From: Bellilinea caldifistulae
Lineage (GTDB): Bacteria; Chloroflexota; Anaerolineae; Anaerolineales; Anaerolineaceae
Reading direction: 5' to 3'
Length of the DNA stretch: 32,000 nucleotides
NCBI RefSeq assembly: GCF_001306055.1
Contig: NZ_LGHJ01000009.1
Span: forward strand, 1-32,000
Position numbers and translations under genes: made by a program. This document shows positions 1,108 to 31,866 of this stretch, piece after piece (position 1 is the stretch's first letter; the number at the start of each line of letters is the position of its first letter). The notes beneath the pieces were generated by a model, which saw only the letters and a program-made list of their open reading frames with translations, was not told the DNA's origin and searched no databases.

Positions 1108-2142
1108 TCAACCAAAGTTCTTCATTTTCAAGAATACCCTGACCACATCCGGATCGAAATGAGTGCCGGCTTGTTTATGGATATATTCTAAGGTGCGTTC
1201 TTCACTCCACGGCTCAGGGCGATACGGCCGGCTGGATCGCAGGGCATCATACACATCAATGACCGCAAAAATACGCGCCTCCAGCGGAATCTGTTCCCCT
1301 TTCAAACCACGCGGATATCCGCTCCCGTCCCATTTTTCATGATGGCAGTAAGGAATGGGGATGGCCGGGCGCAGGTAATCAATCTGGCGCAACAGTTGTT
1401 CGGCATACGCCGGATGGCGGCGCATAATCTCCCATTCAGTTTCGTCAAGCGGGCCGGGTTTAAGCAAAATCGTATCACTGATCGCCATCTTGCCAATATC
1501 ATGCAGCAAAGCCCCGTGGCGCACGTTCAGCACCTCTTCCAGACAAAAACCCACCTCCAAAGCCAGCTGCACCGTGGTTTCGGCTACCCGCTGGGTGTGC
1601 CCGTGTGTTTCATAATCACGTAATTCCAGCGCTTTTGCCCAGCCTTCCAGCGTGTCGGTGAAGGATTGCTCCAGCATCAAATTTACGGCAACCAGTTCGT
1701 TTTGCACCTGTCGCCACTGGGACACATCCCGCAGCAGAACCTGGATCATCTCACGGCTGCCATTGGGGTAAGGCGCCAGGGTTAGAAAAACGGACAATGG
1801 CTCCCCAGCGGCCGATTTCATTTCGATTTCCAGCGGCCCCATGCGGCTGCGGCTGTATTTCATCAATTCCAGCAGCGAAACATAATCCGTCTGACAGACC
1901 GGCTCGATGAATTGGATCAACGGACTGCCGGTCAATTGCTGAGCCGGGCAAGCCAGTAGATTTTCCAACGCCGGGTTGGTGTGCTGGATGCAACCGTTCT
2001 CATCCAGCACACAGTAACCATCCAGCAAAATTTCCAGCAGATTCGGCGCAGGCAAACGAGCGGCTGCGCGCTGGCCGGTTTTCTGCCGCCAGTGAGTCAG
2101 TGCCGTAGAGCGGAAAGTGTTGGAGCGAAAGCGGGGGATCAT
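1108..2142 (-). CDS. PAS-domain HD-GYP protein (predicted c-di-GMP phosphodiesterase)
   Basis: The N-terminal half is PAS-like (LLEILLDGYCVLDENGCIQHTNPALENLL). The C-terminal half has HGHTQRV, LLHDIGKM and HHEKWDGSGYPRGL, which is the full HD...HHExxDGxGYP signature. Its ATG overlaps the cheW stop (ATGA at 2139-2142). Confidence 0.9.
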   Translation of the reverse strand: MIPRFRSNTFRSTALTHWRQKTGQRAAARLPAPNLLEILLDGYCVLDENGCIQHTNPALENLLACPAQQLTGSPLIQFIEPVCQTDYVSLLELMKYSRSRMGPLEIEMKSAAGEPLSVFLTLAPYPNGSREMIQVLLRDVSQWRQVQNELVAVNLMLEQSFTDTLEGWAKALELRDYETHGHTQRVAETTVQLALEVGFCLEEVLNVRHGALLHDIGKMAISDTILLKPGPLDETEWEIMRRHPAYAEQLLRQIDYLRPAIPIPYCHHEKWDGSGYPRGLKGEQIPLEARIFAVIDVYDALRSSRPYRPEPWSEERTLEYIHKQAGTHFDPDVVRVFLKMKNFG

Positions 2143-3713: not shown

Positions 3714-4568
3714 TCATCCGGCGCCGGGCAGTGTAATTAACATCTCCGCCATTTCGATTTGATCCATTACGGTTGAAACCAGTTCTTCCTGTTCGACTTC
3801 CGTCAGGTTAAGAGCCGCCACAGCGCGTTCATCCAACGCATATTGCAGCCCATCCCTCCCCACCCCAATTCCCAACATCATCATGATGCTATCACCGATA
3901 TGGACGGCATAGGCCTGAGCCTGATACGGCCCGGCAGCTGCCGGGTTGTGATGATGAGCAATGACTGCCACCAATCCCTCCGGTAATCGCCAGCGACGCG
4001 CCATCTCGGCCCCCAGCATGGCATGATCAATTCCAAAATAAGAGCGCTCAATCTCCAAAAACGAGGCTGACTGCCACTCGTTCAAACTGAACACCATGCT
4101 GCGCAGTAATTTTTCCAGTGCCAGTTTTCCAATATCACTGAGCAAACCGGCAAAATAAAACTCCTCGATATTCTTCCACTGGCGCTTCTGGGCAATGGTT
4201 CTGGCACAAATTGCCACACCCAGCGAATGTCTCCACAGTTCACCTTTACGTAGTTCGTAACCGGGCAGCGGGCGGTTAAGAAAACTACCCAAACTGGCTG
4301 CCAGAATAATCTCATACAGCGCCTGTAAGCCGATGACCACGACCGCCTGATGCACGGTGGCAATCCGGTTGGGCATTCCGTAAAATGCCGAATTGGCCAC
4401 CCGCAGCACCACACCGGAAAGCACCTGATCCACCGCCAACACATCCGCCACAGCGCTCAGATTGCAATCGGGTGAGCGCATCAGTTCCAGCGCCCGCTGG
4501 GAGGCTTGCGGCAGCGGGGGCAGTTTGCCCGCTTCTCGAATCAGGTCGTCCAGTGTGTAACGCATCAT
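3714..4568 (-). CDS. stand-alone HDOD-domain protein (paralog 1)
   Basis: The 284-aa product has LPPLPQASQRALELMRSPDCNLSAVADVLAVDQVLSGVVLRVANSAFYG, then WRHSLGVA, LLSDIGKL, GIDHAMLG and AHHHNP. This is the HDOD layout, with the HD dyad changed to SD. An AAGAGG RBS follows directly after the cheR stop. Confidence 0.85.
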   Translation of the reverse strand: MMRYTLDDLIREAGKLPPLPQASQRALELMRSPDCNLSAVADVLAVDQVLSGVVLRVANSAFYGMPNRIATVHQAVVVIGLQALYEIILAASLGSFLNRPLPGYELRKGELWRHSLGVAICARTIAQKRQWKNIEEFYFAGLLSDIGKLALEKLLRSMVFSLNEWQSASFLEIERSYFGIDHAMLGAEMARRWRLPEGLVAVIAHHHNPAAAGPYQAQAYAVHIGDSIMMMLGIGVGRDGLQYALDERAVAALNLTEVEQEELVSTVMDQIEMAEMLITLPGAG

Positions 4569-10046: not shown

Positions 10047-10154
10047 AGCAACCCGCCGTATCGAAGTTAAAATCCATACGCTCTGGAGTAAGATTAACAT
10101 AAGGCAAGCCGGCGTTCAGTAAAGAGCGCGTAAAATATAGCCAAAGAACGCATG

Positions 10155-10194
10155 AAAATTTAAACAAAAACTGCTGACCTCAGGCGGTCAGCAG
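10155..10194 (-). terminator. rho-independent terminator downstream of csrA
   Basis: On the minus strand CTGCTGACC-gcctga-GGTCAGCAG (10171-10194) forms a 9-bp stem with a 6-nt loop. It is followed immediately by TTTTTGTTTAAATTTT and starts 20 nt after the csrA stop. Confidence 0.8.
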
Positions 10195-10214
10195 TGATGA
10201 GCCGGTTAAGAAAC

Positions 10215-10505
10215 TTATGCTTGATTCGGTTTTTCGGAAGATGCCGGGGGGTTTTCTTCGGAGGTTTCGTCCGCCAGCAGTTTACGCAGCGCTTCGAAAG
10301 ATTCCGGCTCAGGGCCGCTTGCCAGCAATTCCTGCAAACGAGACTGCTCCTTGACCGCCTCGGCGACCTCCTGGCGTAAAATCAACACATCACGGGGAGC
10401 CGTGATCCCCAGCTTGACTCGGTCACCTTCCACAGCCAGCACCGTGACGGTGATCGAATCACCAATGGCAATACTTTCATCTACCCGACGGGTCAGCACT
10501 AACAT
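10215..10505 (-). CDS. csrA: carbon storage regulator CsrA with extended acidic C-terminal tail
   Basis: MLVLTRRVDESIAIGDSITVTVLAVEGDRVKLGITAPRDVLILRQEV aligns residue-for-residue with the canonical CsrA [47 protein letters not shown]. At 96 aa it is longer than typical. Confidence 0.93.
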   Translation of the reverse strand: MLVLTRRVDESIAIGDSITVTVLAVEGDRVKLGITAPRDVLILRQEVAEAVKEQSRLQELLASGPEPESFEALRKLLADETSEENPPASSEKPNQA

Positions 10506-16539: not shown

Positions 16540-16941
16540 TTACTCCTTCACCTCACCGACATTCGGTTGATTCCGTACCTCGCTGCCGGCTCCACTCTGA
16601 AAATCTGACGAATGGGTTGCCTGCTCCTGCCGGACGGTTTGTTCGGCTGTGCGGGCATTGACCAAACCGGCGGACACCTGATAGGTGAGAAACCACAATA
16701 ATGTACCTAACGACACCACCCCGACCACCGCTCGCAGAAAGACCTCCAACAAAGTTGCGCCTGACATGAACGAAACCAGCGCAATCACCAGTGTCACCAG
16801 CAGCAGAATCATGGTGGAAAATGAGAAGAACACCTCGGCAAACAACGGCAGGGTCACATCTGGCTGCGCGTTTTTCTTTTTGGCTGGTGGTTTTTTGGGG
16901 GTTTTTCCCTTTTCGGGTTTGGGTTCTTTGTCCTTCGCCAT
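16540..16941 (-). CDS. hypothetical small membrane protein with Lys/Pro-rich N-terminus, in the position usually held by flhG
   Basis: Its ATG at 16941 overlaps the flhF stop (TGATG). The product begins MAKDKEPKPEKGKTPKKPPAKKKNAQ, followed by two to three hydrophobic helices and a polar tail. The competing frame 16553..16966 is Arg-rich and looks non-coding. Confidence 0.6.
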   Translation of the reverse strand: MAKDKEPKPEKGKTPKKPPAKKKNAQPDVTLPLFAEVFFSFSTMILLLVTLVIALVSFMSGATLLEVFLRAVVGVVSLGTLLWFLTYQVSAGLVNARTAEQTVRQEQATHSSDFQSGAGSEVRNQPNVGEVKE

Positions 16942-18212
16942 CAGTCCTGATTCCATCCTTTCCCAAAGAGTGCTGCGCTCAGGCGCGAGGCTTCGGCAGC
17001 CTGAAATTTACCGGCGGTTTCTTTGCCGTAAGCAAAATAACGTAATGGATAGGGCGTCTGCCGGGCAAAGTTGTAGACACTGCCAAAGGTAAGCGTCTCG
17101 TCCATGCGGGTAAAAATCATTCCATTAAGGCGGAAAACGCCCAGCGCCGCGCTGATCTGCCGGAGGTCGCTCTCGCGGGTCAACGCCGATGCCACCAGCC
17201 AGGTCACCCGTTGAGGAATCTGGCTGAGCAGTTCACCCAGTTCAGCCAGTGGTTCTTCACGGCAGGGATTGAAACCCGCTGTATCCACCAGAAAGACATC
17301 CACCTCTTGCATCTCATCGGCAATGATTTGAATATCCTGGGGTTGGTACACCAGCCTCAGCGGTATGTTGAGTGCATCGGTATAAGCGCGGGCTTCCGCG
17401 ATTGCACCGGTGCGGATGGTGTCTGCACACACCCACACCACCTTTTTGCCGAGGTGCTGACTGTACAGCAATGCCAGTTTGGCGGTCGTGCTGGTTTTAC
17501 CGCTGCCGCTGGCTCCGACCAGAGAAACCCAGCGTCCGGGCAGGCGCAAAGCTCCCGGCGCTGGCAGGCGCAGGTCGGCCGCCAGCACTTCCTGCACATA
17601 ACGCAGGCATAAACTTTCCTCTTTGAGCATGGCAGCACCCAGAGTCTGATTCAGGCGCTGCAACGTTCGCCGCACAAATTCGGCTTCAACCCCCTGGTCC
17701 AGCAGCCGCTGCTGAATGCGCTGCAAACTGACCGGCAGCAGCTGCACCTCCGCTTCCACAGCCGGCGGATGATCGGCCGGCTGATTTTCGGGTTCTTTGA
17801 CCGTTTCCGCAATAACCGCCGGAGCGGCCGGCTTCTGGGCAGCCCGGATTTCTGCCCGGCTGAGATGCGGCGGTGACCAGCGCTGCGGCTGAGAAGATGC
17901 CGTCTTTTCACCCGGCGGAAAAGCCGGCTGCCCGCCCACCCACTCAATTTCGGGCGGTTGTTCTTCAAACTCAATCCCAGCGCCATCGGCGCTGCGCCGC
18001 AGGACGCTCCTGGTCTGGGAGGACTGGGCAGGTTGACTGTTCAACGGCGGAGCGGCTACCACCTCAACACCCTTTTTGCGCCACACATTCCAGACCGGCC
18101 CCATTGGAATTTCACGCGCCGAGAGGACAATCGCATCTGGCCCCAGTTCAGCCTGTATACGCTGGAGAGCCTCCAACATCGTTTCGCACTGATACTTACG
18201 CGTTTCCATCAT
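16941..18212 (-). CDS. flhF: flagellar biosynthesis GTPase FlhF (SRP-type)
   Basis: Has a P-loop (LVGASGSGKTSTTAKLA) and a DTAG motif. The B-domain start is MMETRKYQCETMLEALQRIQAELGPDAIVL. It lies downstream of flhA. Confidence 0.92.
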   Translation of the reverse strand: MMETRKYQCETMLEALQRIQAELGPDAIVLSAREIPMGPVWNVWRKKGVEVVAAPPLNSQPAQSSQTRSVLRRSADGAGIEFEEQPPEIEWVGGQPAFPPGEKTASSQPQRWSPPHLSRAEIRAAQKPAAPAVIAETVKEPENQPADHPPAVEAEVQLLPVSLQRIQQRLLDQGVEAEFVRRTLQRLNQTLGAAMLKEESLCLRYVQEVLAADLRLPAPGALRLPGRWVSLVGASGSGKTSTTAKLALLYSQHLGKKVVWVCADTIRTGAIAEARAYTDALNIPLRLVYQPQDIQIIADEMQEVDVFLVDTAGFNPCREEPLAELGELLSQIPQRVTWLVASALTRESDLRQISAALGVFRLNGMIFTRMDETLTFGSVYNFARQTPYPLRYFAYGKETAGKFQAAEASRLSAALFGKGWNQD

Positions 18213-21427: not shown

Positions 21428-22189
21428 TCAGTTCCCAATCAACGACAACATGCGCGGAGCAATTTCACGGTACAGGTTGCCGATCAACGGCAGCCCTACC
21501 AGAATGACCATGCCCATTGCAATCAGCGAAACGCCGATTTTAAGCGGCAGGCCGAGAAAATAGACCTGCACCTGCGGCGCAACCCGCGCCAGCAGTCCCA
21601 GCGTCAAATCGGTGAGAAACAGAGCAGCCATCACCGGCAGGGCAAGATGGACGCCCGCCAGAATCAACTGGGCGGTGGTCTGCATGAGAGCATCCATTCG
21701 GTCAAGCGGGAGGGGCGCCATCAGCGGCAGCACATCGAAGGTCTTTTTGACTCCAATCAAAAACAGGTGATGCCCGTCAATCACCAGAAAATAGAGCATC
21801 ACCACCATCATGAAGAATTGATCCAGTGCGGTCGAGCTTTCCGCAATGGCAGGATTGAACAGTCGGCTGGAAGCAAAGCCGCTTCCCAGCCCCATGGCTT
21901 CCCCGGCGATTTGCAGCGCGCCAAAAGTCAGGCGGGCCGCAAACCCGGCCAGCGTTCCGATCAAAATTTCTCGGGCGATCATCACCGCGTAAGCCAGCCC
22001 GTCCATCCACTCGGTCTGCGGTGGAAGAGGCTGCCACGGCAGCAAAACGGCTGCCAGAATCAGGCCCAATCCAATCCGCACCTGTAGGGGAATGGATTGC
22101 CCACCCAAAACCGGCACGGCAATCATCATAGCCAGAATACGGGTCAGGGCAAGGAAATATAACTGAGCCTGCGCCACCGAAACCATCAC
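21428..22189 (-). CDS. fliR: flagellar export gate protein FliR
   Basis: The 253-aa product is polytopic and begins VSVAQAQLYFLALTRILAMMIAVPVLGG. It lies directly upstream of flhB. The start is GTG 22189 or ATG 22186, after GGGAGAG. Confidence 0.9.
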   Translation of the reverse strand: MMVSVAQAQLYFLALTRILAMMIAVPVLGGQSIPLQVRIGLGLILAAVLLPWQPLPPQTEWMDGLAYAVMIAREILIGTLAGFAARLTFGALQIAGEAMGLGSGFASSRLFNPAIAESSTALDQFFMMVVMLYFLVIDGHHLFLIGVKKTFDVLPLMAPLPLDRMDALMQTTAQLILAGVHLALPVMAALFLTDLTLGLLARVAPQVQVYFLGLPLKIGVSLIAMGMVILVGLPLIGNLYREIAPRMLSLIGN

Positions 22190-22239
22190 AATCGTTCTCT
22201 CCCACGGCAGAACTTAGTTTCAGGATAACGGATTTGGGC

Positions 22240-22281
22240 AAAAAATTCCGTAAAGGCGGAGTGAAGCCTGTCTAAATACGG
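22240..22281 (-). terminator. weak imperfect hairpin plus U6 tract in the REC-fliR spacer (possible attenuator or partial terminator)
   Basis: On the minus strand CCGTA...AGGC-ttcactcc-GCCT.TACGG is followed by AATTTTTT. The stems are only 5 + 4 bp with an asymmetric internal loop, so the prediction is weak. Confidence 0.25.
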
Positions 22282-22292
22282 CGTAAAAAATT

Positions 22293-22685
22293 TTATTTTT
22301 GTAAAACAGACGCAATCCGCTTGGTCAGCGCATCGGCATCCAATGGCTTGACAAAGAAATCGGCCACCCCCAACTCTCGCGCACGCAGCACCACTTCGGG
22401 GAAAGCCAGACGAGAAACCACAAATACTCTTGTTTCCCCCAGCGCCCGATCCGCCTGCAATTGTTCTAAAACATCCAGCCCATTGGCGCCGGGCAGGAAC
22501 AGGTCCAGCAGCAAAGCCTGTGGATGATGACGGGCAAGCAGGTCGGGCAAATCGGCTGCTTCCCGCGCCATCACCACTTCAAATCCGGTGCGTTGCAACG
22601 CCAGCCCGGCCAGATCACGCTGCAAGGCATCCGGTATCAGCAAGACAATCCGTTTCGACCGCTGCTCAGTCATCGCACCGCTCAT
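22293..22685 (-). CDS. stand-alone response-regulator receiver domain protein
   Basis: The 130-aa product has a phospho-acceptor context (ALLLDLFLPGANG), VFVVSRL and FFVKPL. The beta1 acidic pair reads IPD rather than DD. Its ATG overlaps the upstream HDOD stop (ATGA at 22682-22685). Confidence 0.85.
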   Translation of the reverse strand: MSGAMTEQRSKRIVLLIPDALQRDLAGLALQRTGFEVVMAREAADLPDLLARHHPQALLLDLFLPGANGLDVLEQLQADRALGETRVFVVSRLAFPEVVLRARELGVADFFVKPLDADALTKRIASVLQK

Positions 22686-23518
22686 GATGCCGAAACCCCT
22701 AACACATCCATAACTCGCTGCTGGAAGCGCTCCAGCCGCACATCGTCCAGCGAGAGAATGGCAAAGGTATCCGGGTGAATCTCATCGCAAAATAAACCCT
22801 GCTGGCTACCCTGCACCTTGATGGTCAGGTAATTGGCCAGGTTGACAATTGCCGGTAAAACCGGATTGGCATGTGCCGCTGATGGATAATGATGAAACGA
22901 GATGGCATCAATCAAGACGGTGGGGAAGCCCCAGCGCTGGGCGATCAAACCGCCGACCCGGGCATGGTCAATCCCAATCAGTTTTTCTTCCACCTGCCAG
23001 AGCGGCTGATTGTACTTCTTCACATACAAAATAATCTGGCTGTAATCGGAAAGCACGTATTGGTCCAGCAGCAGCTTGCCGATATCGTGCAACAATCCGG
23101 CAACATAGGCTTCCTCAGGATCACGGTAAGAAAGCGCCCGGGCTGCCCATTCGGCGGTGACGGCCGTTCCGACCGAATGATTCCACAACTCCCCGGCCCC
23201 CAACCGATACCCGCTCAGCTGGCGGTTCATCGAATCAACCGCCACCGAAGCCAGCAACAACGATTTCAAACGCTTGACACCAATCCGCACCACTGCATCG
23301 TTCAACGAAGAGCAGGAACGTCCGTATCCCAGTACAGCCGAATTGGCCATCTGCAGTACCAGCGCCGCCAATGCCTGATCCAGACCAATATACTCGGCAA
23401 TCATCCCAAGGCTTACCTTGGGATTTTCCAATTCTTTCAGCACGCGGGTGACATTGGAGGGAATTGGACGAAGATGATTGACCGATTGAAGAATGGCCTG
23501 TACACGTTGAGTCAGCAT
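22682..23518 (-). CDS. stand-alone HDOD-domain protein (paralog 2)
   Basis: The 278-aa product has LRPIPSNVTRVLKELENPKVSLGMIAEYIGLDQALAALVLQMANSAVLGYG, then WNHSVGTA, LLHDIGKLLLD, GIDHARVG and FHHYP. A GGAG RBS lies 7 nt upstream, 22 nt after the fliQ stop. Confidence 0.85.
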   Translation of the reverse strand: MLTQRVQAILQSVNHLRPIPSNVTRVLKELENPKVSLGMIAEYIGLDQALAALVLQMANSAVLGYGRSCSSLNDAVVRIGVKRLKSLLLASVAVDSMNRQLSGYRLGAGELWNHSVGTAVTAEWAARALSYRDPEEAYVAGLLHDIGKLLLDQYVLSDYSQIILYVKKYNQPLWQVEEKLIGIDHARVGGLIAQRWGFPTVLIDAISFHHYPSAAHANPVLPAIVNLANYLTIKVQGSQQGLFCDEIHPDTFAILSLDDVRLERFQQRVMDVLGVSAS

Positions 23519-23540
23519 TGGGTCGCTCCGTTGAAAATGG

Positions 23541-23810
23541 TCAGGGTGTCAGACTGGGAAGGGAGTTGAACAACTCGCTCGTGAAGACCAGAATTTGTTG
23601 CAGCATCCACGAACCCAAAACAACCAGGACGACAATAATGCCGATCATCTTGGGGACAAACGAAAGGGTCGGCTCGTTGATCTGGGTAGCCGCCTGCACC
23701 AGACTGATCAGACTGCCCACCAGCAGGCTGACCAGCATGACCGGCCCGGCCAGAATCAGCGCCATGGTGATCGCTTTTTGGGCCAGCGTCATGACAAAGG
23801 CTTCGGTCAT
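23541..23810 (-). CDS. fliQ: flagellar export gate protein FliQ
   Basis: The 89-aa product contains LILAGPVMLVSLLVGSLISLVQAATQINEPTLSFVPK. Confidence 0.93.
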   Translation of the reverse strand: MTEAFVMTLAQKAITMALILAGPVMLVSLLVGSLISLVQAATQINEPTLSFVPKMIGIIVVLVVLGSWMLQQILVFTSELFNSLPSLTP

Positions 23811-23820
23811 GGCATCCTCC

Positions 23821-24615
23821 TCATTGCAAAAAACTCAACGCCAGACTGCGCACCACCAGATACCAGCCATCCACCATCACAAATAACAAGAGCTTGAACG
23901 GCAGGGCAACCAGCGAAGGCGGCAACATGATCATACCCATCGAAAGCAGCACGCTGGAAACCACCAGATCAATGACCAAGAAGGGTATGAAGATGACAAA
24001 ACCCATGGTAAAAGCTGTGCGCAGTTCACTGATGACAAAGGCGGGAAACAGGGCAACCGTGGGAATATCCTCCACGGTTTGCGGCTGCGGCTCGCCGCTC
24101 AAATCCAAAAACAATTGAATGTCTTTTTCGCGGGTATGCGCCAACATGAAAGCCCGCACCGGTTCAACCGCCTTCTTGAAGGCCGTTTCCTGATCAATTT
24201 CCTCCTTCAAGTAGGGTTGAATGGCGGTTTGATCCACCTGCTGATAGACCGGAGACATGATGAAAAAGGTCAAGAGCAGAGATAAGCCAATGACCACCTG
24301 ATTTGGCGGAATGGTCGGTGAGCCGATGGCGCTGCGCAGCATGGAAAGCACAATCACAATCCGGGTAAACGAAGTTGCCAGAATCAGGATGGCCGGCGCA
24401 AGCGAAAGCACGGTCAGTAAAACCAGCAACTGCACCCCGCTGGTTACCTGCTTTGGCTGTCCCTCCGGTTCAATCGTCAGGGTGACCCCCGGCACGCTGA
24501 GGTTGGGATCGCCCACACATCCGCTCAACACCAGCGAAACAAGCAGCAGCACGGCCAGAATCATCAACATTTTTTGACGGCGGGAAAGACCGGTCAACCA
24601 TGCTTTGATTTTCAT
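23821..24615 (-). CDS. fliP: flagellar export gate protein FliP
   Basis: Contains TSFTRIVIVLSMLRSAIG and PNQVVIGLSLLLTFFIMSPV. The start was taken as ATG 24615 (MKIKAWLTGLS, signal-like), after the fliO stop at 24623. Confidence 0.93.
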   Translation of the reverse strand: MKIKAWLTGLSRRQKMLMILAVLLLVSLVLSGCVGDPNLSVPGVTLTIEPEGQPKQVTSGVQLLVLLTVLSLAPAILILATSFTRIVIVLSMLRSAIGSPTIPPNQVVIGLSLLLTFFIMSPVYQQVDQTAIQPYLKEEIDQETAFKKAVEPVRAFMLAHTREKDIQLFLDLSGEPQPQTVEDIPTVALFPAFVISELRTAFTMGFVIFIPFLVIDLVVSSVLLSMGMIMLPPSLVALPFKLLLFVMVDGWYLVVRSLALSFLQ

Positions 24616-24622
24616 GGCGAAA

Positions 24623-25126
24623 TTATTCCTTTCCACTCGACCTGACCTGCAAAAAGCCCTGTAACAGTCGGTTGAAATCTTGACCAATGGGGATGGGTTG
24701 TTCATCATCCGCCGGATCGGCCAGTTCGACCTGTGAAATCAGCGAAATGTTCTGATCGGTGGCGCCGACCAGGAATTGCTGCCCGCCTACCCGCACCAGA
24801 TGCAAAGCCTGCTTGGGTGAAAGGCGGATGGTTTCAACCACCATCATCTGGCCGCCACGGCTCAAGCGGCGCGGGTTACGCGCCCAGCGCATGACGATAA
24901 CCCCACAGCCGACAATGAGCAGCAAAACGCCGATCAGTTTCACCACCACGCCCGCAAAATAGAGGGTCGAGGGTTCATCCGCTGGCTGCTGAGGGGCAGC
25001 CCCGCCGCTGATGACCAGCCCAAAACTGGCAAGTACTCCTACCAGCAGCAGCACAGCCTGAATTTTCTGTTTTCGGCTGGCAGCCGCAAACCACTGCTGA
25101 AGGCGGTTTCGCAATGCCGTCATCAC
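24623..25126 (-). CDS. fliO: flagellar biosynthesis protein FliO/FliZ
   Basis: It lies between fliN and fliP. It has a TM helix plus LSPKQALHLVRVGGQQFLVGATDQNISLI, a FliO-type motif. Its start overlaps the fliN stop. Confidence 0.75.
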   Translation of the reverse strand: MMTALRNRLQQWFAAASRKQKIQAVLLLVGVLASFGLVISGGAAPQQPADEPSTLYFAGVVVKLIGVLLLIVGCGVIVMRWARNPRRLSRGGQMMVVETIRLSPKQALHLVRVGGQQFLVGATDQNISLISQVELADPADDEQPIPIGQDFNRLLQGFLQVRSSGKE

Positions 25127-25470
25127 AGGTTTCCTTTGCGATTTTCGGGGCTGATGACCTCGGTGATGCGCACACCGAACTTATCATCCACCACCACCAC
25201 TTCGCCGCGGGCAATTAACAGGTCATTGACGAACACATCCACCGGATCGCCCGCCAACCGGTCCAGTTCAATCACCGAACCGTTTTGCAGGTCCAAAACC
25301 TGCTGTAAAGTCATGCGGGTGCGCCCCAATTCCACCGTCACCTTCAACATCACATCCATGAATAGATCAATGCTGGCGCTTTCCCGGCTGGTGGTCTTCA
25401 CCGCTGCAGTGGTTGCCGGGCGCGCAGGTGCCGGCGCATTTTCAAATTCGACCGGATCGTTTTCGTTCAT
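25123..25470 (-). CDS. fliN: flagellar motor switch protein FliN (short form, no CheC-like domain)
   Basis: The 115-aa product has a SpoA domain (VTVELGRTRMTLQQVLDLQNGSVIELDRLAGDPVDVFVNDLLIARGEVVVVDDKFGVRITEV). Confidence 0.92.
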   Translation of the reverse strand: MNENDPVEFENAPAPARPATTAAVKTTSRESASIDLFMDVMLKVTVELGRTRMTLQQVLDLQNGSVIELDRLAGDPVDVFVNDLLIARGEVVVVDDKFGVRITEVISPENRKGNL

Positions 25471-25473
25471 CGT

Positions 25474-26526
25474 TCACCTCTCGATCTCATCGGTAGGGTC
25501 AGCCGGTTCGCGAATGACCCCGTTGATTTGAATGGCAATATTTCGACCGCTGCGTCCAACCCGTCCGGTAAATCGCTTGCGGCGGGCCACTTCCACCACC
25601 AGCGGTTCGCGGATGGAAGTATCCAGTTGAATGACATCTCCCACAGCCAGATTCAGAATTTCCCGCAGGCGTAATTCAGCCTGTCCCAGCGGCACCCGGA
25701 TGGGAAGGGTGACACGCTGCATATTTTGCAGAACCTTCTCACGGGTGGTGTAGTCCTGCTGCTGCTCCTTGCGTCCGGCAATCCAGATGTGGGGATTCAG
25801 CACATTGGCAATCGGTTTGAGCGTGTTGAAGGGGATAAAGAGGCTCATCGTACCGGTGGTACCTTGAATGTTCAACTCAAAGGTGAGCAGCATCACCCGC
25901 TCATTGCCCATGATCATCTGTACCCAGTGTTGATTGGTGGTGGAGTCCTCCAGGGTGGGTTCCACCGAAACCACCTTGCTCCAGGCCGCCTTAATATCAC
26001 CCAGCATGTGTTCCACCAGCCCGCGCAGCAAGGACTGGTCAATTTCGGTTAACGGACGATCCTGATAGCGTCCCTCGATTTTCCCACCCAGCCGCTGTTC
26101 CAAAATCAGGTAACTGATGTTGGGGCTCATGGTGATCACCACCTGACTGGGCAGCGGTGCAAGGTTGATCATGTGAAACAGGGAGTTGGGTGGAAAATCT
26201 TTGAGAAAATCGTGGAAACGTCCCTGTTCGGTATGCACCAGACGCGGGCGTAAATTGGTGCGTAAAAAGGTCGGCAGTGAGGTAGTCAGCCGCTCGGTCA
26301 GGTCTTCATGCACCAGTTCCACCGCGCGCATCTGCTCCTTGGAGAAGCGGTCCGGCGACCAGAAGTTGTAGGACGTTACCTTCTTGCCGCCTTCGGTCTC
26401 AGCGCGCCCGCGCTGCTCGCCGCCCTGGTTAATCAGTTCGGCAAGATTGACGCTTTCCTGACCGTCTTTCTGGTCAACCTCAATGGCGCCTTTGAGTAGT
26501 GCGTCAATTTCGGACTGGGATAACAT
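25474..26526 (-). CDS. fliM: flagellar motor switch protein FliM
   Basis: The N-terminal CheY-P binding peptide is MLSQSEIDALLKG. The product is 350 aa and ends in a SpoA-like domain. Confidence 0.95.
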   Translation of the reverse strand: MLSQSEIDALLKGAIEVDQKDGQESVNLAELINQGGEQRGRAETEGGKKVTSYNFWSPDRFSKEQMRAVELVHEDLTERLTTSLPTFLRTNLRPRLVHTEQGRFHDFLKDFPPNSLFHMINLAPLPSQVVITMSPNISYLILEQRLGGKIEGRYQDRPLTEIDQSLLRGLVEHMLGDIKAAWSKVVSVEPTLEDSTTNQHWVQMIMGNERVMLLTFELNIQGTTGTMSLFIPFNTLKPIANVLNPHIWIAGRKEQQQDYTTREKVLQNMQRVTLPIRVPLGQAELRLREILNLAVGDVIQLDTSIREPLVVEVARRKRFTGRVGRSGRNIAIQINGVIREPADPTDEIER

Positions 26527-26529
26527 GGC

Positions 26530-27135
26530 TCACTGCACCACAAACTCGGTGAAATAGACGGAGAGCAGGTGAAATTCCGGCAGGCGCTGCTGAATGGCCT
26601 GCATCAATTCCTGCCGCAGGCGTTCTTTGCCCTCAGCAGTGTAAAGTTCCTCAAACGTCTTGGTGGAAAGCAGGGTGATCACCACATCGTCCATCACCGG
26701 CATGCGCGACTGAATGCGGGTTTCAAAATCATTGCCGGCCGCAGCAGCCTCCCCTGAGTCATGCCCCCCGGATGCTTTAGCCGATTTTTCGTCCGCCGGG
26801 GCTTCCTCCGGCGCAAATTCCAGCACAACCGTCAGACGGATGTACTTGCGCCCGCTGGGATCAGCCAGATTGATGATTTTGGTGGACATATTGACCATAA
26901 TTCCTTCCCCCGGCTGATACACATGCGGGGTGGGGGTTGGTTCCACAGCGGCTTCCACCGAGCCCAACGGCAGAGTACTGCGGGAATAATCGTAAACCAG
27001 GTGGAAGGGTTTGGGGAAATCATCCGGCGCAAACATGATGTAGGCGGTTGCCAGTGAAATGGCAGCAATCGCCGTCACCACCAGAAAGGTCATCACCTTG
27101 GTTACAATGTTGAGAATATTCAGGACTTTGCTCAT
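26530..27135 (-). CDS. fliL: flagellar basal-body-associated protein FliL
   Basis: Has a single N-terminal TM helix, then KYIRLTVVLEF and a conserved C-terminal region. It lies between motB and fliM. Confidence 0.85.
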   Translation of the reverse strand: MSKVLNILNIVTKVMTFLVVTAIAAISLATAYIMFAPDDFPKPFHLVYDYSRSTLPLGSVEAAVEPTPTPHVYQPGEGIMVNMSTKIINLADPSGRKYIRLTVVLEFAPEEAPADEKSAKASGGHDSGEAAAAGNDFETRIQSRMPVMDDVVITLLSTKTFEELYTAEGKERLRQELMQAIQQRLPEFHLLSVYFTEFVVQ

Positions 27136-27152: not shown

Positions 27153-27938
27153 TTAAGGTAGCGGGACACTGGGGGCTACATTGAGATTTTCAACCCCGAT
27201 GACACTGTTCTCGATTGGATAAACGATGATGATATCTACCCGGCTGTTCAAAGCGCGATGTGCGGGTGTGTCGTTGGGAAAGATTGGGTCATATTCCGCT
27301 CGGCCGGTGATGATCAGGCGACTGGGAGCAATGCCGTTTTGCATCAAAAAGTCGGCCACGCTCATCGCCCGCGCCAGTGAAAGTTCCCAGTTATTTCGGT
27401 AGGGCGAATCGGAAGGCAGGGAATCATCCGTGTGTCCAACCAATCGAATTGGATTGCTGATCGGCCGCACCATCTCCACAATGGTATGAAGCACCTCCAG
27501 GGCCGAGGGGGAAAGTTCTGCCCGCCCCGGCGCAAACACCAGCTTCTCGCTCAACGAAATCAGCACCCCCTCGATGTTGGTCTGCACGCTGATCTCGTTG
27601 CCGAATTGGGTACCGGACAACATGCGGGTCAACTGGCCGGCCACTTCCTCAGACTTGGGAGGGGCTTCGGGGATGCCCGGCACAACAATCGGTTTGGGCT
27701 GGCCGTTTTCAATCGTGCCGCCACTCTGGTTGATCTGGACATCCACCACACGCGCCGCGCCGCCCAGCGAAAAGGCCGCCCGCATGCTCTCGGCCAGTCG
27801 TTTGTACTTTTCCACGTCAATCTGCCCCATCGAGTACAGCACCACGAACAACACCATCAACAAGGTGATGAAGTCCGCGTAACTGACCAGCCAGCGTTCG
27901 CTGTTTTCGCCGCCTTCGCCGCCGCCACCGTGTGCCAT
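27153..27938 (-). CDS. motB: flagellar stator protein MotB (OmpA-like peptidoglycan-binding domain)
   Basis: The plug/TM region is ERWLVSYADFITLLMVLFVVLYS, including the conserved Asp. The C-terminus has GHTD...SNWELSLARA. Confidence 0.92.
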   Translation of the reverse strand: MAHGGGGEGGENSERWLVSYADFITLLMVLFVVLYSMGQIDVEKYKRLAESMRAAFSLGGAARVVDVQINQSGGTIENGQPKPIVVPGIPEAPPKSEEVAGQLTRMLSGTQFGNEISVQTNIEGVLISLSEKLVFAPGRAELSPSALEVLHTIVEMVRPISNPIRLVGHTDDSLPSDSPYRNNWELSLARAMSVADFLMQNGIAPSRLIITGRAEYDPIFPNDTPAHRALNSRVDIIIVYPIENSVIGVENLNVAPSVPLP

Positions 27939-27941
27939 GGC

Positions 27942-28769
27942 TTACGCTCCTGCTTCTTTCGCGGCTGCCGCCGCTTTCTTGGCGGGCTTTTCAGCCCCTT
28001 TGTCTTCTTCGCCTTTGACTGCCGACGGAGGCAGGTAGGCGTTCAACTTCTCGCGCACGATGCGCGGGTTCTCACCAGCCTGAATGGACAAAATCCCCTC
28101 CAGCAGCATGTAGCGCAGGTGAGCCTCTTCATCACTCTTGGCTTTGAGTTTTGCGCCAATCGGCAGGAAAATCAGGTTGGCGCTCAACAAGCCCCATAGA
28201 GTCGCCAGAAACGCGCCCGCAATGGACTTTGCCAGCTTGTTGGGATCATCCAGCGATTGCAGTACCGAGATCAGCCCCATAACCGTACCGATAATGCCGA
28301 AAGTGGGGGCAAAACCGCCCGCGGCAGTGAAGAAACTGTAGCCGGCGCGGTGACGGGCTTGCATCTGTTGAATATTGATCTCCATGATCGAGCGCACCTG
28401 AGCCGGATCCACGCCGTCCACCACCATCATGATGCCTTTTTGCAAGAATTTATCGGTGATTTTCTTGCTGTCCTCTTCCAGGGCCAACAGACCGTCTCGC
28501 CGGGCGCGGTCAGCCATCTTCACCAGCAATTCAATCAATTCATGTTCATCATGCTTGGCTCCCATGATGGCCTTGCTGATCAAAACCGGCAATTTAGTTA
28601 CGATTTTCAGGGAGGTGGTGATGGTAGTTGCCATGATGGCTCCCAAAGCCGTGATCATAATCGCCGAGGGATGGGCAAACAACTCTGCCGGTGTCCCTCC
28701 ATCCAAAATCATGACGGTCACCACCACAATAACCGCGCCGATCAAACCGATGATTGTTGCCAGATCCAT
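27942..28769 (-). CDS. motA: flagellar stator protein MotA
   Basis: The 275-aa product has a MotA/ExbB-type channel region (IAGAFLATLWGLLSANLIFLPIGAKLK) and a Lys/Ala-rich C-terminal tail. Confidence 0.93.
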   Translation of the reverse strand: MDLATIIGLIGAVIVVVTVMILDGGTPAELFAHPSAIMITALGAIMATTITTSLKIVTKLPVLISKAIMGAKHDEHELIELLVKMADRARRDGLLALEEDSKKITDKFLQKGIMMVVDGVDPAQVRSIMEINIQQMQARHRAGYSFFTAAGGFAPTFGIIGTVMGLISVLQSLDDPNKLAKSIAGAFLATLWGLLSANLIFLPIGAKLKAKSDEEAHLRYMLLEGILSIQAGENPRIVREKLNAYLPPSAVKGEEDKGAEKPAKKAAAAAKEAGA

Positions 28770-28781
28770 CGCATTACCTCA

Positions 28782-28988
28782 CTATCTGTCCTGATTGGTA
28801 AACAAGGGCTGCGAAATTTGCCGTCGGTATTCGATGTAGCGTTCACGGATAACCTCTGGTGATTCGCGCACCACCAGTTTTTTATCGTTGATCAGAGTGA
28901 CCACGGTATCCGGTGTTCTTTCCACGCTTTGAATCAACTCCGGGTTGAGGTAAAATTCCGTTCCATTGAGCCGAGTCAGCCGAATCAC
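28782..28988 (-). CDS. flbD: flagellar protein FlbD
   Basis: The 68-aa product is IRLTRLNGTEFYLNPELIQSVERTPDTVVTLINDKKLVVRESPEVI, the FlbD signature. GTG start at 28988 with an AAAGG RBS. It is the first gene after a 225-nt divergent spacer. Confidence 0.88.
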   Translation of the reverse strand: MIRLTRLNGTEFYLNPELIQSVERTPDTVVTLINDKKLVVRESPEVIRERYIEYRRQISQPLFTNQDR

Positions 28989-29174
28989 ATCACAACCTTT
29001 CTAAACATCAGCCATCGAAACGCCTTAAATCAGTTCTCCCACGCAAGAATCTAACATATTGCCCCTTTCATGGACATAAAGATGCCGTGAAAGCCCTGTA
29101 AAGAACATCTAAAAATTCCCCCTCACCTTTCATTTTCATTAATTACCCGCCATTGTGAAGGATGCCTATCCGAA

Positions 29175-29182: not shown

Positions 29183-29213
29183 ACTCGTGCAGGAGGTAAA
29201 CCAAAGGTCACAC

Positions 29214-31130
29214 ATGCCGCATCCGGATAAACGGGTTCTGATTTTGGATGACGATGGCGCGCTGGGGACCATGCTGCGCGATTTCATTGCGCATGCCTGC
29301 CAGTGTGAGGTCGTTCATCTTGATCATCCAGATGATTTATGGGGAACGCTGGAAAGCGGCGATTTTGATGTGCTGTTTTTGGATTACAAACTCCCCGGCA
29401 GCAACGGCATTGAAATTCTGGAACGGCTTTACCAGAATCCCTGTTACCGCCATCTGCCCGTCATCATGATGACCGGCGAAGGCAGCGAAACAGTCGCAGC
29501 CCGCGCCATTCAGACCGGGGCAATGGACTATCTGGTCAAGACCGAATTATCGTTTGAAATGCTGCCAGCCCTGATTGAAAAAGCCGCTCAGCGCCGCGCC
29601 ATGCAACAGGCCATTCAAGAAGCGCGGCAAAAAGTAGAATATCAGGCGATGCTGCTGAACAACGCCCGTGATGCCATCATCAGCTGGGACTTGAACAACA
29701 TTATTACCTACTGGAATCAGGCAGCCGAACGATTATTCGGTTTTTCAGCCGAGTACATGCTGGGAAAACCTGTTTTCGAAGCCTATTTTTCACTGTTCGA
29801 GCAGCCCCAGCGCCGCAGCGCTGCCGATGAAAATGTGACTCTGCTGGGCGAACGACGCTTCCGCCACCCCCAGCGCGGTATGATATGGGTCAGTTCGCAA
29901 ATCAGCCGGCTATACGGCGGCGAAGATGGCAATCAACTGATCGGCACGATGGATGTGGTGCGCGACATTACCCTGACCAAGCAGGAACAGGAATCGCTGG
30001 CTCAAAGCCAGCATTTCATCAAACGCATTCTGGAAACCATCCCGCATATCATCTACATCATCCACTTGCGGGAAAATCAACTGCGCTACGTCAGTCCCAA
30101 AGTCAAGGATCTGCTGGGGTACTCGATCGAAGAAGCCGAAGCCATCCCCTTCCATAAGATTCTCGACGGTGTACATATGGAAGACCGCGAACGCGTCCGG
30201 CAGCATTACAAGAACTACCTCAAACAGCCGCCCCTGCAAGCTTTGACCATCGAATACCGTTTGAAGAATGCTGCCGGCCAGTGGCGCTGGCTGCGTAATG
30301 TTGAAACCATCTTTTCGCTGGATGGGGTGGGTAACCCGGTCGAAATCATCGGCATCTGCGAGGACATCACCGCCCGCAAAGAGATGGAAGAAAAACTGAG
30401 CGCTTCTCAGGTGTATGTTACCCAGACGGCGCGCATGGCGGCCATCGGTCAACTGGCGGCCAGCGTTGCCCATCAGATCAGCAATCCCCTGACCACCATC
30501 ATCGCCGATTCCCAGCTGCTGCTGCGCAGTTTGCCGCAGGACGAGGAGCAAGCCGATTCCTTGAAAGCCATTCTTTCGGCCGGCTGGCGGATGCAGGAAG
30601 TGATTGATCTCTTAATGAAATTTTCACAGCCGAGCAGCAGCACAAGACAGATATTATCAATTAATGATACAATTAGTAAAGCAATTTTACTGGCGGGATC
30701 TCATTTACGTTCCGCACAAATTGATCTGCATCTCAACCTCAGCGAACCCTCCCCATTGATTTTGGGTTTTGAACAACGTCTGGTGGATTTGTGGGTTAAT
30801 TTATTGCTTGCGGAACACCCTGCGGATCCCAATCAATCACCCCGCAACATCTGGATCGAATCGCGCAGCGTGGAGGGGGATATTCTTGTAACCATCAGCG
30901 ATGATGGCCAACCCATCTCCGCCGAGGAAATGGAAACCCTCTTTGAACCCCAACTGATTCCGCGCGGTACCGGAAGGGGCAACGGCATTGAGCTGAGCCT
31001 GTGCCGGGAGATTGTCCGCCAGCACGAAGGCTCTATTCAAGTCAGCAGTCAAGAGGGAAGAACAGTTTTTACAATTTGCTTGCCTTCAGGAGTGGATGGA
31101 AATGGACGGGAAGAAGATCTTGATAATTGA
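29214..31130 (+). CDS. hybrid sensor histidine kinase: N-terminal receiver + two PAS domains + HisKA + HATPase_c
   Basis: The receiver has VLILDDDGALG, VLFLDYKLPGSNG and MDYLVKT. Two PAS-like segments follow. The H-box is SVAHQISNPLTTI, and the ATPase G-boxes are ISDDGQPI and GTGRGNGIELSL. The start is ATG 29214 or GTG 29187. Confidence 0.9.
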   Translation: MPHPDKRVLILDDDGALGTMLRDFIAHACQCEVVHLDHPDDLWGTLESGDFDVLFLDYKLPGSNGIEILERLYQNPCYRHLPVIMMTGEGSETVAARAIQTGAMDYLVKTELSFEMLPALIEKAAQRRAMQQAIQEARQKVEYQAMLLNNARDAIISWDLNNIITYWNQAAERLFGFSAEYMLGKPVFEAYFSLFEQPQRRSAADENVTLLGERRFRHPQRGMIWVSSQISRLYGGEDGNQLIGTMDVVRDITLTKQEQESLAQSQHFIKRILETIPHIIYIIHLRENQLRYVSPKVKDLLGYSIEEAEAIPFHKILDGVHMEDRERVRQHYKNYLKQPPLQALTIEYRLKNAAGQWRWLRNVETIFSLDGVGNPVEIIGICEDITARKEMEEKLSASQVYVTQTARMAAIGQLAASVAHQISNPLTTIIADSQLLLRSLPQDEEQADSLKAILSAGWRMQEVIDLLMKFSQPSSSTRQILSINDTISKAILLAGSHLRSAQIDLHLNLSEPSPLILGFEQRLVDLWVNLLLAEHPADPNQSPRNIWIESRSVEGDILVTISDDGQPISAEEMETLFEPQLIPRGTGRGNGIELSLCREIVRQHEGSIQVSSQEGRTVFTICLPSGVDGNGREEDLDN

Positions 31131-31866
31131 AGATGATGACATTGTTGCCCGCACCATTGAACGCTGTCTGCGCGGTGGTGAATACCGCGTCACCATTGCC
31201 AGCAGCGGAGTTGAGGGGCTTCAGGCCGCCCGGCGTGACGTGCCCGATCTGGTCATTCTGGATGTAATCATGCCCGGCATGGACGGCTATACCGTCTGTA
31301 AAGAAATGCGGAAGGATACTCTGCTTGCCGAAGTGCCCATTCTCTTCCTGACCGCCAAGACCAAAGACGATGATAAGATCACCGGACTGGCAGCCGGTGC
31401 GGACGATTATCTTGGCAAACCTTTCAATGTGGATGAATTATTGCTGCGCATCAAAGCCATTTTGCGCCGCACCCAACGCATGAAACAGGAAAGCGCACAG
31501 CCAGCCGGGCCGGCCGCCGAAGCCAGCCCACGGAAAGAAGCGCCGGAGCGGATCGTCCGCATCGGCGAGTACACCCTCAACACCCGCACCTTCGAGTTTT
31601 ACAGCCCGCAAACCGGGAAATTCCGCCTGACGCCGGTGCAATACGACTTGCTCTATCACCTGATGACTCATCCCGGTGAAATTTTCTCACCCAACCGCCT
31701 GCTGGATGAGGTATGGGACTACCCCAGCGATGCCGGTAGTCCCGATCTGGTGCGGGTGCACATCAAAAACCTGCGCGAACGTATCGAACTCGATCCAAAA
31801 AATCCGGTCTTTATTCAAACCGTACCGGGCTACGGCTACACCATTCCACTTCCTGAGGAAGGATAG
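31096..31866 (+). CDS. OmpR/PhoB-family response regulator (receiver + winged-helix DNA-binding domain)
   Basis: The receiver has KILIIEDDD, LVILDVIMPGMDG and DDYLGKPF. The C-terminus has LTPVQYDLLYHLMTHPGEIFSPNRLLDEVW...VRVHIKNLRERIE...IQTVPGYGY. Start ATG 31096 follows CAGGAG and overlaps the kinase 3' end by 35 nt. Confidence 0.92.
   Translation: MEMDGKKILIIEDDDIVARTIERCLRGGEYRVTIASSGVEGLQAARRDVPDLVILDVIMPGMDGYTVCKEMRKDTLLAEVPILFLTAKTKDDDKITGLAAGADDYLGKPFNVDELLLRIKAILRRTQRMKQESAQPAGPAAEASPRKEAPERIVRIGEYTLNTRTFEFYSPQTGKFRLTPVQYDLLYHLMTHPGEIFSPNRLLDEVWDYPSDAGSPDLVRVHIKNLRERIELDPKNPVFIQTVPGYGYTIPLPEEG

Follow-up and report, generated by a model that had tools for sequence, protein, structure and literature searches.

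An HDOD and receiver gene pair between fliQ and fliR in the flagellar clusters of Anaerolineae, a possible accessory signalling module

Why would a gene for a stand-alone HDOD protein and a gene for a single-domain receiver (REC) stand between fliQ and fliR, two genes of the flagellar type III export gate? The question is raised by a stretch of 32,000 nucleotides from Bellilinea caldifistulae (NZ_LGHJ01000009.1, positions 1-32,000; hereafter the window), the minus strand of which carries the flagellar features discussed here as part of a Bacillus-type flagellar and chemotaxis cluster. A sequence-only reading of the window had proposed that the two genes are a translationally coupled insertion in the core of the export operon, of a kind not described before, and that they may form a phosphorylation-responsive checkpoint or motor-control module made in fixed ratio with the export-gate subunits. 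Our follow-up by profile searches, comparison of loci and structure prediction tentatively points to an accessory signalling module, conserved in the lineage, that serves flagella and chemotaxis in the Anaerolineae.

Re-reading the sequence bore out every coordinate and detail that had been given for the pair, its spacers and the overlap of the two reading frames (Table 1), and Pfam profile searches placed both domain assignments far above the cut-offs. The HDOD protein matches the HDOD profile at 6.4e-54 (182.9 bits, cut-off 22.9), its residues 17-212 covering profile positions 2-196 of 196, and it also matches Pfam HD at 1.9e-11 and lies above the HD and HDIG profile cut-offs. The receiver matches Response_reg at 1.6e-15 (57.6 bits, cut-off 30.2). 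The surrounding FliP, FliQ, FliR, FlhB, FliO and FliN proteins are likewise all above their Pfam cut-offs, and gene calls in relatives are in line with the fliP start at 24615 (264 aa). The GC content and the GC content at third codon positions (GC3) of the pair are similar to those of the adjoining genes.

A scan of GTDB species representatives recovered 422 relatives of the HDOD protein, and the locus counts anchored on HDOD refer throughout to the best 80 of these 422, with one locus per species representative. All 80 are annotated as Anaerolineae or Chloroflexota, and the cultured members among them include Ornatilinea apprima, Leptolinea tardivitalis, Thermanaerothrix daxensis and T. solaris. 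fliQ lies directly upstream of the HDOD gene in 79/80 loci, a receiver gene lies directly downstream in 78/80, and fliR-flhB(-flhA) come next in 71/80. More than 1,300 HDOD relatives were found at E <= 1e-10; of the best 120, all that carry a name belong to the Anaerolineae or Chloroflexota. Because the first loci had been found through HDOD, the comparison was repeated from FliR on metagenome contigs, using the 64 loci whose contigs reach 500 nt or more beyond fliR on its upstream side. There, fliQ was next to fliR in none of the 64 and REC was the nearest upstream gene in 59; in the remaining five, nothing was detected in the 563-857 nt available upstream of fliR. In Thermomicrobium roseum, which has the closest FliP of the plasmid collection, the genes fliP-fliQ-fliR-flhB-flhA form an unbroken series, with a fliQ|fliR gap of 9 nt and neither HDOD nor receiver. 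From the class-wide separation of fliQ and fliR together with the contiguous Thermomicrobium roseum genes it follows that the insertion is, on this comparative evidence, a derived trait found throughout the class Anaerolineae and inherited vertically with the flagellar genes. We found no published description of HDOD together with Anaerolineae flagellar genes, fliQ or CheD in a search that left subscription journals mostly outside. To that extent the arrangement is undescribed, but it is not the oddity of one genome; it is common in the clade without having been characterised there.

The pair is closely linked to fliPQ, and its vertical inheritance is borne out by distance matrices of HDOD and REC, which track those of FliM, FliP, FliR and FlhB (r = 0.76-0.89) and thereby argue for co-inheritance; raw mirror-tree correlations are high for all flagellar genes. 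Where the gene order is broken (L012, L013), the pair remains with fliPQ. Other departures are a tandem HDOD-HDOD-REC duplication at the fliQ site (L102) and a rearranged cluster in which HDOD is present and the receiver absent (L079). The REC|fliR junction takes further genes in some relatives, namely one for a dCache methyl-accepting chemotaxis protein (MCP) inserted after REC in L016 and L034, one for a REC-HisKA-HATPase hybrid in L042, L049 and L110, and elsewhere a reverse-strand gene of no assigned identity.

Gene spacing shows to which transcription unit the pair would belong. The median gaps across relatives are 9 nt for fliP|fliQ, 19 nt for fliQ|HDOD (79 loci) and 4 nt for HDOD|REC, with overlapping reading frames in 23/78, in keeping with the proposed translational coupling; fliR|flhB has a median gap of 6 nt, and REC|fliR one of 169 nt with a minimum of 102 nt. 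The order from motA to fliP is common to 79/80 Anaerolineae loci, and flbD is the first gene of the unit in the relatives L087 and L088 as it is in the window. The two proteins, both soluble by prediction and translationally coupled, are the last products of this flbD-motAB-fliLMNOPQ unit. The spacer between REC and fliR holds a promoter-like block that aligns without gaps in 66/68 spacers, with the consensus TTTACG-N5-TTTAG-N6-CTTCA-N7-TTTAC-N21-TATCCT, that is, four T-rich pentamers (TTTAC/TTTAG/TTCAC/TTTAC) with 11-bp phasing followed by a -10-like hexamer, TATCCT. In the window, 2 nt separate it from the REC stop codon and 31 nt from the start of fliR. Exactly one block accompanies each fliR in the fliR-bearing loci (L007-L168), in most cases with 16-50 nt between its end and the start codon. 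The block remains beside fliR where an MCP or a REC-histidine-kinase gene splits REC from fliR (L016, L034, L042, L049), is absent where REC has no following fliR (L012, L013), and is also found upstream of fliR in the more distant lineages L170 and L172.

An RNA reading of this spacer was rejected in favour of a DNA element, with no Rfam match in the window and no consensus structure from RNAalifold on the 66-sequence block. Judged by eye, none of the sigma-28, sigma-54 and standard sigma-70 readings of the block fits, the last because the 21-nt TTTAC-TATCCT spacing is too long, and a generic promoter scan returned nothing in the REC-fliR spacer of the window. Terminator-like hairpins occur between REC and the block in 13/49 relatives with enough room, against 2/49 in a coding control. 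One subclade (L018, L021, L026, L028, L029, L038) has a conserved hairpin with a 12-bp stem at this place, approximately ATCCTGAAGG-N7-CCTTCAGGAT and then a T-run; this structure is probably an intrinsic terminator that follows the receiver gene. A terminator scan of the window found no terminator-like hairpin between REC and fliR, and since the block there starts 2 nt after the REC stop, read-through into fliR is possible in Bellilinea. On our reading, HDOD and REC close the flbD-motAB-fliLMNOPQ unit, and fliR opens a separately promoted unit, fliR-flhB-flhA-flhF-...-fliA. The pair would hence not lie inside one export operon, as had been thought, because the REC|fliR gap of at least 102 nt holds a block that travels with fliR. 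Synthesis in fixed ratio, for the same reason of a promoter-like block belonging to fliR, is possible with the motor, C-ring, FliP and FliQ products but not with FliR or FlhB.

Similar phased T-rich pentamers with a -10-like box are found on the minus strand upstream of flbD (~29040-29116) and cheA (10091-10153), and related upstream elements occur in relatives (L087 4405-4465, L088 4367-4414, L176 187-255). When the whole window was scanned with the block profile, the copies before cheA (E = 0.3) and flbD (E = 2.1) were not significant; when the search was confined to eight upstream regions, including the orthologous ones of relatives, the flbD and cheA copies gained moderate support, with E = 4e-7 to 0.07. 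The flbD, fliR and cheA units may share one regulator, and the Anaerolineae flagellar cluster is divided into separate units (flbD...REC, fliR..., cheA...), probably with a common, unusual promoter architecture. Divergent from flbD-motA, the window encodes a REC-PAS-PAS-histidine-kinase hybrid (29187-31130, plus strand) and an OmpR-type response regulator (31012-31866, plus strand), whose open reading frames (ORFs) overlap by ~120 nt as listed; L088 has kept these two genes, whereas L087 has not. Since phased direct repeats are bound by regulators of the OmpR type, the two genes are candidates for binding the blocks and for phosphorylating REC.

The receiver itself keeps the residues of a phospho-switch under strong selection. 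D57, S87, F106, K109 and P110 (CheY numbering) are present in Bellilinea, and among 78 orthologues, which share an overall identity of only 30-45%, D57 is conserved in 77/78, S/T87 in 77/78, F106 in 77/78, K109 in 76/78 and P110 in 77/78. This conservation argues for a working conformational switch. The motif LLLDLF, the Ser and the Lys are as the sequence-only reading had them, and so is I-P-D in place of the acidic pair. Asp12-Asp13, the pair that binds Mg2+ in receivers, is replaced by E-x-D/N in most of the 78 orthologues and by I-P-D in the Bellilinea subclade, with E at position 12 in 62/78 and mostly Pro at position 13. REC is 31% identical over 101 residues to the canonical CheY of the cluster (118 aa, in the che operon), and in PDB and NCBIfam it is matched best by receivers of a generic kind (the RpfC REC, Spo0F, PhoB and CseB), not by CheY.

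The HDOD protein has no predicted membrane segment (maximum hydropathy KD(19) = 1.51). Its best solved relative by sequence is 3HC1 at 1.3e-32, a structural-genomics entry without known function from Geobacter sulfurreducens (identity ~27-30%), followed by 3M1T, Cj0248 (3e-17), SadB and MmoQ. An AlphaFold2 (AF2) model from 15 sequences reached a predicted local distance difference test (pLDDT) of 66 and a predicted template modelling score (pTM) of 0.70, its N-terminal third being poor, and because this confidence is only moderate the model was not used for pocket geometry. Foldseek searches with it, in agreement with the all-helical HD-related fold of solved HDOD structures, placed 3HC1 at rank 1, with 3M1T, SadB (9.5e-07), MmoQ, 3MEM and Cj0248 among the top matches and, after the HDOD structures, the HD domain of the cyclic di-AMP (c-di-AMP) phosphodiesterase PgpH. 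3HC1 contains two irons, with five His and one Asp as their ligands (PMC12075610). These ligands, all shared, align with H114, H144, D145, H185, H209 and H210 of the window protein and are invariant in 81/81 sequences; the alignment shows that the HDOD protein keeps the complete predicted His5-Asp di-metal site of the Geobacter structure.

HDOD is a superfamily of 36,900 cluster representatives at E <= 0.001 in an exhaustive search, and relatives of the window protein associate with flagellar or chemotaxis genes independently and repeatedly. The 150 nearest HDOD representatives include five CheD-HDOD fusions (P0132, P0146, P0213, P0221, P0261), three REC-HDOD fusions and one Hpt-HDOD fusion. 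The CheD-HDOD gene of Thermosulfuriphilus ammonigenes lies between a kinase gene and cheR, beside hybrid kinases and filament genes, the Hpt-HDOD gene (P0168, L173) lies directly upstream of motA-motB, and a REC-HDOD relative is placed after a PAS kinase. Among stand-alone relatives, one of 43% identity (P0124, L170) follows fliQ without a receiver and one of 38% identity (P0286, L172) lies between flhB and flhA. The window has a second stand-alone HDOD gene (3714-4568, minus strand; 35% identical) between cheR and two cheX genes, a placement kept in distant Anaerolineae (L175 6001-6846, L176 6001-6852) in the conserved order cheA-cheC-cheD-cheY-cheB-cheR-HDOD-cheX-cheX-cheW. The pocket of this che-operon HDOD differs in a fixed manner, with Cys or Ser for His144 and with His226 and Asp229 for Asn226 and Asn229.

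The HDOD and REC domains are known, as is their combination; new are the split, reversed, flagellar-operon form, its class-wide conservation and the wider pattern of placements. The REC-HDOD regulators GsmR of Xanthomonas campestris, DVU0330 and MmoQ have the same two domains, GsmR controls flagellar motility, and the HDOD domain of MmoQ matches that of the window in sequence and fold. These regulators are single polypeptides with an N-terminal REC, whereas the window, like 78 relatives, has two ORFs in HDOD-then-REC order within a flagellar operon, and GsmR lacks the conserved His whereas the window HDOD retains all metal ligands. Swimming is affected by the HDOD proteins GsmR, Cj0248, PFL_0554 and PFL_5871 (PMC11004494). 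The stand-alone HDOD protein PSPTO_4229 has a che-like fitness profile, and its over-expression blocks swimming through two arginines that are predicted protein contacts (PMC11813219). Like the window protein, PSPTO_4229 of Pseudomonas syringae, Cj0248 of Campylobacter jejuni and PFL_0554/PFL_5871 of Pseudomonas protegens are stand-alone HDODs, of ~270-300 aa, and swimming changes when they are lost or over-expressed. They belong to Proteobacteria and Campylobacterota and have low identity to the window HDOD, and in the literature cited none is reported from within a flagellar operon or together with a receiver coupled to it. SadB of Pseudomonas shares the fold, regulates the motile-sessile switch, also affects swimming and offers a precedent for HDOD as an adaptor. 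It is a protein adaptor without ligand binding, for which the pocket is not needed, and differs in its extra N-terminal YbaK-like domain, in the loss of most pocket histidines and in its target, the transcription factor AmrZ, which it directs to proteolysis (PMC12075610). The literature does not agree on a mechanism for the HDOD motility proteins. In the fla/che operon of Bacillus subtilis, cheY lies between fliY and fliZ, which we take to be a precedent for a receiver among switch and export genes; that gene encodes a canonical CheY, however, whereas the fliQ-linked REC has a degenerate acidic pocket and departs from the CheY of its own cluster.

These comparisons mark HDOD as a conserved flagellar and chemotaxis accessory, the action of which we infer. 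Our preference, with somewhat less than even confidence, is for a split REC-HDOD response-regulator-like module whose HDOD part would contact motor/switch or chemotaxis proteins. REC would receive its phosphate from CheA or from a REC-histidine-kinase hybrid, the candidates by context being the CheA of the cluster, the hybrid kinase divergent from flbD-motA and the REC-histidine-kinase hybrids encoded directly after REC in L042 and L049. Its phosphorylation state would alter binding to the HDOD protein, so that REC would control this putative metal-binding protein or be controlled by it. HDOD would act by protein-protein contact on motor/switch or chemotaxis signalling proteins, its metal centre possibly supplying a redox or metal input, and the output would be changed swimming behaviour, not export-gate assembly. 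Several observations weigh against such a module. The pair is not obligate, five loci having fliQ-REC-fliR without HDOD (L161, L164, L165, L167, L168) and the deeper lineage L170 having fliQ-HDOD-fliR without REC; a mirror-tree analysis with the shared phylogeny removed gave an HDOD-REC partial r of 0.11, no specific signal of co-evolution; the degenerate acidic pair implies that REC phosphorylation may be inefficient or absent; and no cognate kinase gene adjoins the pair in the window. As far as the literature cited goes, moreover, flagellar motility in the Chloroflexota has been shown experimentally only for Tepidiforma isolates, and the Anaerolineae are listed as "flagellar or none" (PMC10746286 and others). 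A more far-reaching version, which we think unlikely, makes the flagellar-operon HDOD a di-iron sensor of redox, O2 or NO that with REC would provide a new input to motor or chemotaxis, an energy- or aerotaxis brake in strict anaerobes; if true, the HDOD subfamily would be a widespread, overlooked flagellar accessory, and the recurrence of HDOD genes in motility screens would be explained.

The competing explanations include an enzymatic role for HDOD. As a metal-dependent phosphatase for phosphorylated REC, CheY or Hpt, it would make the pair a phosphate sink that carries a phosphatase of its own and shortens the motor signal, a role which the CheC-like domain of FliY plays at the motor in Bacillus. 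The FliN of the window, only 115 aa long, matches the FliN C-terminal profile alone, with no CheC-like match. The HD-superfamily ligands are intact throughout and the HD and HDIG cut-offs are passed, and the CheD, Hpt and REC fusions set HDOD beside phosphorylated signalling domains, CheD being the partner of the CheY-P phosphatase CheC. Genes for CheC and two CheX phosphatases already exist in the cluster, however, their products matching the CheC/CheX profiles, and a Pfam search with these profiles found no match in the HDOD or REC protein. DVU0330, with an intact HD, is a weak phosphodiesterase on bis-p-nitrophenyl phosphate (bis-pNPP) and is inactive on cyclic di-GMP (c-di-GMP) and the other substrates tested (PMC4114195), GsmR has neither hydrolase nor phosphatase activity, SadB works without its pocket, and no HDOD has been reported to dephosphorylate a receiver, so that we regard a phosphatase as unlikely. 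Hydrolysis or sensing of a nucleotide second messenger such as c-di-GMP, gated by REC and linked to the motor, strikes us as quite improbable. The Foldseek match to PgpH would fit it, and HD-GYP genes lie at the edge of the che cluster in the window and L176 and beside L172, which also has cyclases. The HDOD protein itself fails to match the HD_5/HD-GYP profiles and lacks a GYP motif, with YPSAAHANP after H209-H210, whereas the PAS-HD-GYP protein of the window, as a positive control for HD_5, scores 3.4e-34. According to a report cited in PMC12075610, the SadB of Pseudomonas fluorescens binds c-di-GMP; that of Pseudomonas aeruginosa does not bind it (PMC12075610); PSPTO_4229 altered swimming without a Congo-red phenotype.

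The export checkpoint put forward in the sequence-only reading, in which the pair would monitor or control how the type III export gate is assembled or works, perhaps through contact with the cytoplasmic domains of FlhA/FlhB or with FliPQR assembly intermediates, draws on the place of the pair directly after fliPQ and on the recurrence of HDOD beside export genes, since it follows fliQ without REC in L170 and lies between flhB and flhA in L172. Both proteins are soluble and without a membrane segment, however, the promoter-like element, joined in 13/49 relatives by terminator-like hairpins, splits the pair from fliR/flhB/flhA, and other members of the subfamily lie by motAB, cheR or kinase genes rather than export genes. 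To our knowledge no export checkpoint uses HDOD or REC domains. The checkpoint is without specific support and we consider it distinctly unlikely; the comparative evidence, namely the CheD, Hpt and REC fusions and the paralogue in the che operon, leans more towards chemotaxis and phospho-signalling. The two genes could finally be passengers, a generic two-component fragment at an operon boundary that is kept by linkage and has no flagellar function. That the REC|fliR junction is an insertion hot spot, taking an MCP gene, REC-histidine-kinase genes and a reverse-strand gene, and that some lineages lack one partner would suit this explanation. It is very improbable and already disfavoured by the retention of the pair at one place throughout the class as sampled, by ligand and switch residues that are invariant despite the low overall identity of REC, by GC and GC3 values like those of the neighbours, and by the independent and repeated joining of HDOD relatives to flagellar and che genes.

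The cluster in which the pair lies runs on the minus strand in the order flbD, motA, motB, fliL, fliM, fliN, fliO, fliP, fliQ, HDOD, REC, then fliR, flhB, flhA, flhF, a small ORF, fliA, rod/hook-associated genes and csrA, and then cheA, cheC, cheD, cheY, cheB, cheR, the second HDOD gene, two cheX genes, cheW and a PAS-HD-GYP gene. The positions of the features from flbD to fliR are given in Table 1.

Table 1. Features around the HDOD-receiver pair in the window, in the order of transcription
Feature	Position	Strand	Evidence or remark
flbD	28782-28988	-	Pfam FlbD 3.5e-28; opens the unit that closes with HDOD-REC
motA	27942-28769	-	Pfam match
motB	27153-27938	-	Pfam match
fliL	26530-27135	-	Pfam match
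fliM	25474-26526	-	Pfam match
fliN	25123-25470	-	above Pfam cut-off
fliO	24623-25126	-	above Pfam cut-off
fliP	23821-24615	-	above Pfam cut-off; 264 aa
fliQ	23541-23810	-	Pfam Bac_export_3 1e-25; NCBIfam fliQ equivalog 95.1 bits (cut-off 88.9)
fliQ-HDOD spacer, 22 nt	23519-23540	-	GGAG ribosome-binding site 8 nt before the HDOD ATG
HDOD gene, stand-alone, 278 aa	22682-23518	-	Pfam HDOD and HD
ATGA stop/start overlap, HDOD TGA with REC ATG	22682-22685	-	read from sequence
REC, single-domain receiver, 130 aa	22293-22685	-	Pfam Response_reg
REC-fliR spacer, 103 nt, 43% GC	22190-22292	-	read from sequence
fliR-proximal promoter-like block	22221-22290	-	nhmmer E = 1.3e-15 in the window
fliR, GTG start	21428-22189	-	Pfam Bac_export_1 5.1e-56; NCBIfam fliR equivalog 173.9 bits (cut-off 168.6)

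Some further features of the cluster were seen in passing. The interval between flhF and fliA, the usual occupant of which is a MinD/ParA-type FlhG, holds in the window a small ORF without a Pfam match (16540-16956, minus strand), with counterparts in L087 (16826-17224) and L088 (16548-16877) and a size range across the three of 109-138 aa; in L172 a CbiA/ParA-type gene is found there instead. Between flgL and cheA lies a csrA of 96 aa with a C-terminal extension (10215-10505, minus strand), followed by a clean intrinsic terminator (~10170-10200, minus strand). The longest cheA ORF, starting at 10100, is probably too long, a likely start lying near 10045 (MQMVFDISQ...). The PAS-HD-GYP protein, a candidate c-di-GMP phosphodiesterase by its HD_5 match, closes the che cluster (1108-2142, minus strand), a position kept in at least one distant relative (L176 10962-11987). 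Bellilinea caldifistulae, with one protein of which a protein of the window is 100% identical, is described as a non-motile filament; the flagellar and chemotaxis gene set of the window is apparently intact and under purifying selection.

HDOD is a very large signalling family without a settled function, and its genes recur in swimming screens. The class-wide, vertically inherited placement after fliQ, the invariant ligands, the coupled receiver, the paralogue in the che operon and the independent fusions and placements make the pattern described here the strongest kind of comparative evidence that HDOD functions in direct connection with flagellar or chemotaxis components. The host organisms are hard to work with; the pair provides a testable handle on a long-unexplained domain, with concrete partners named.

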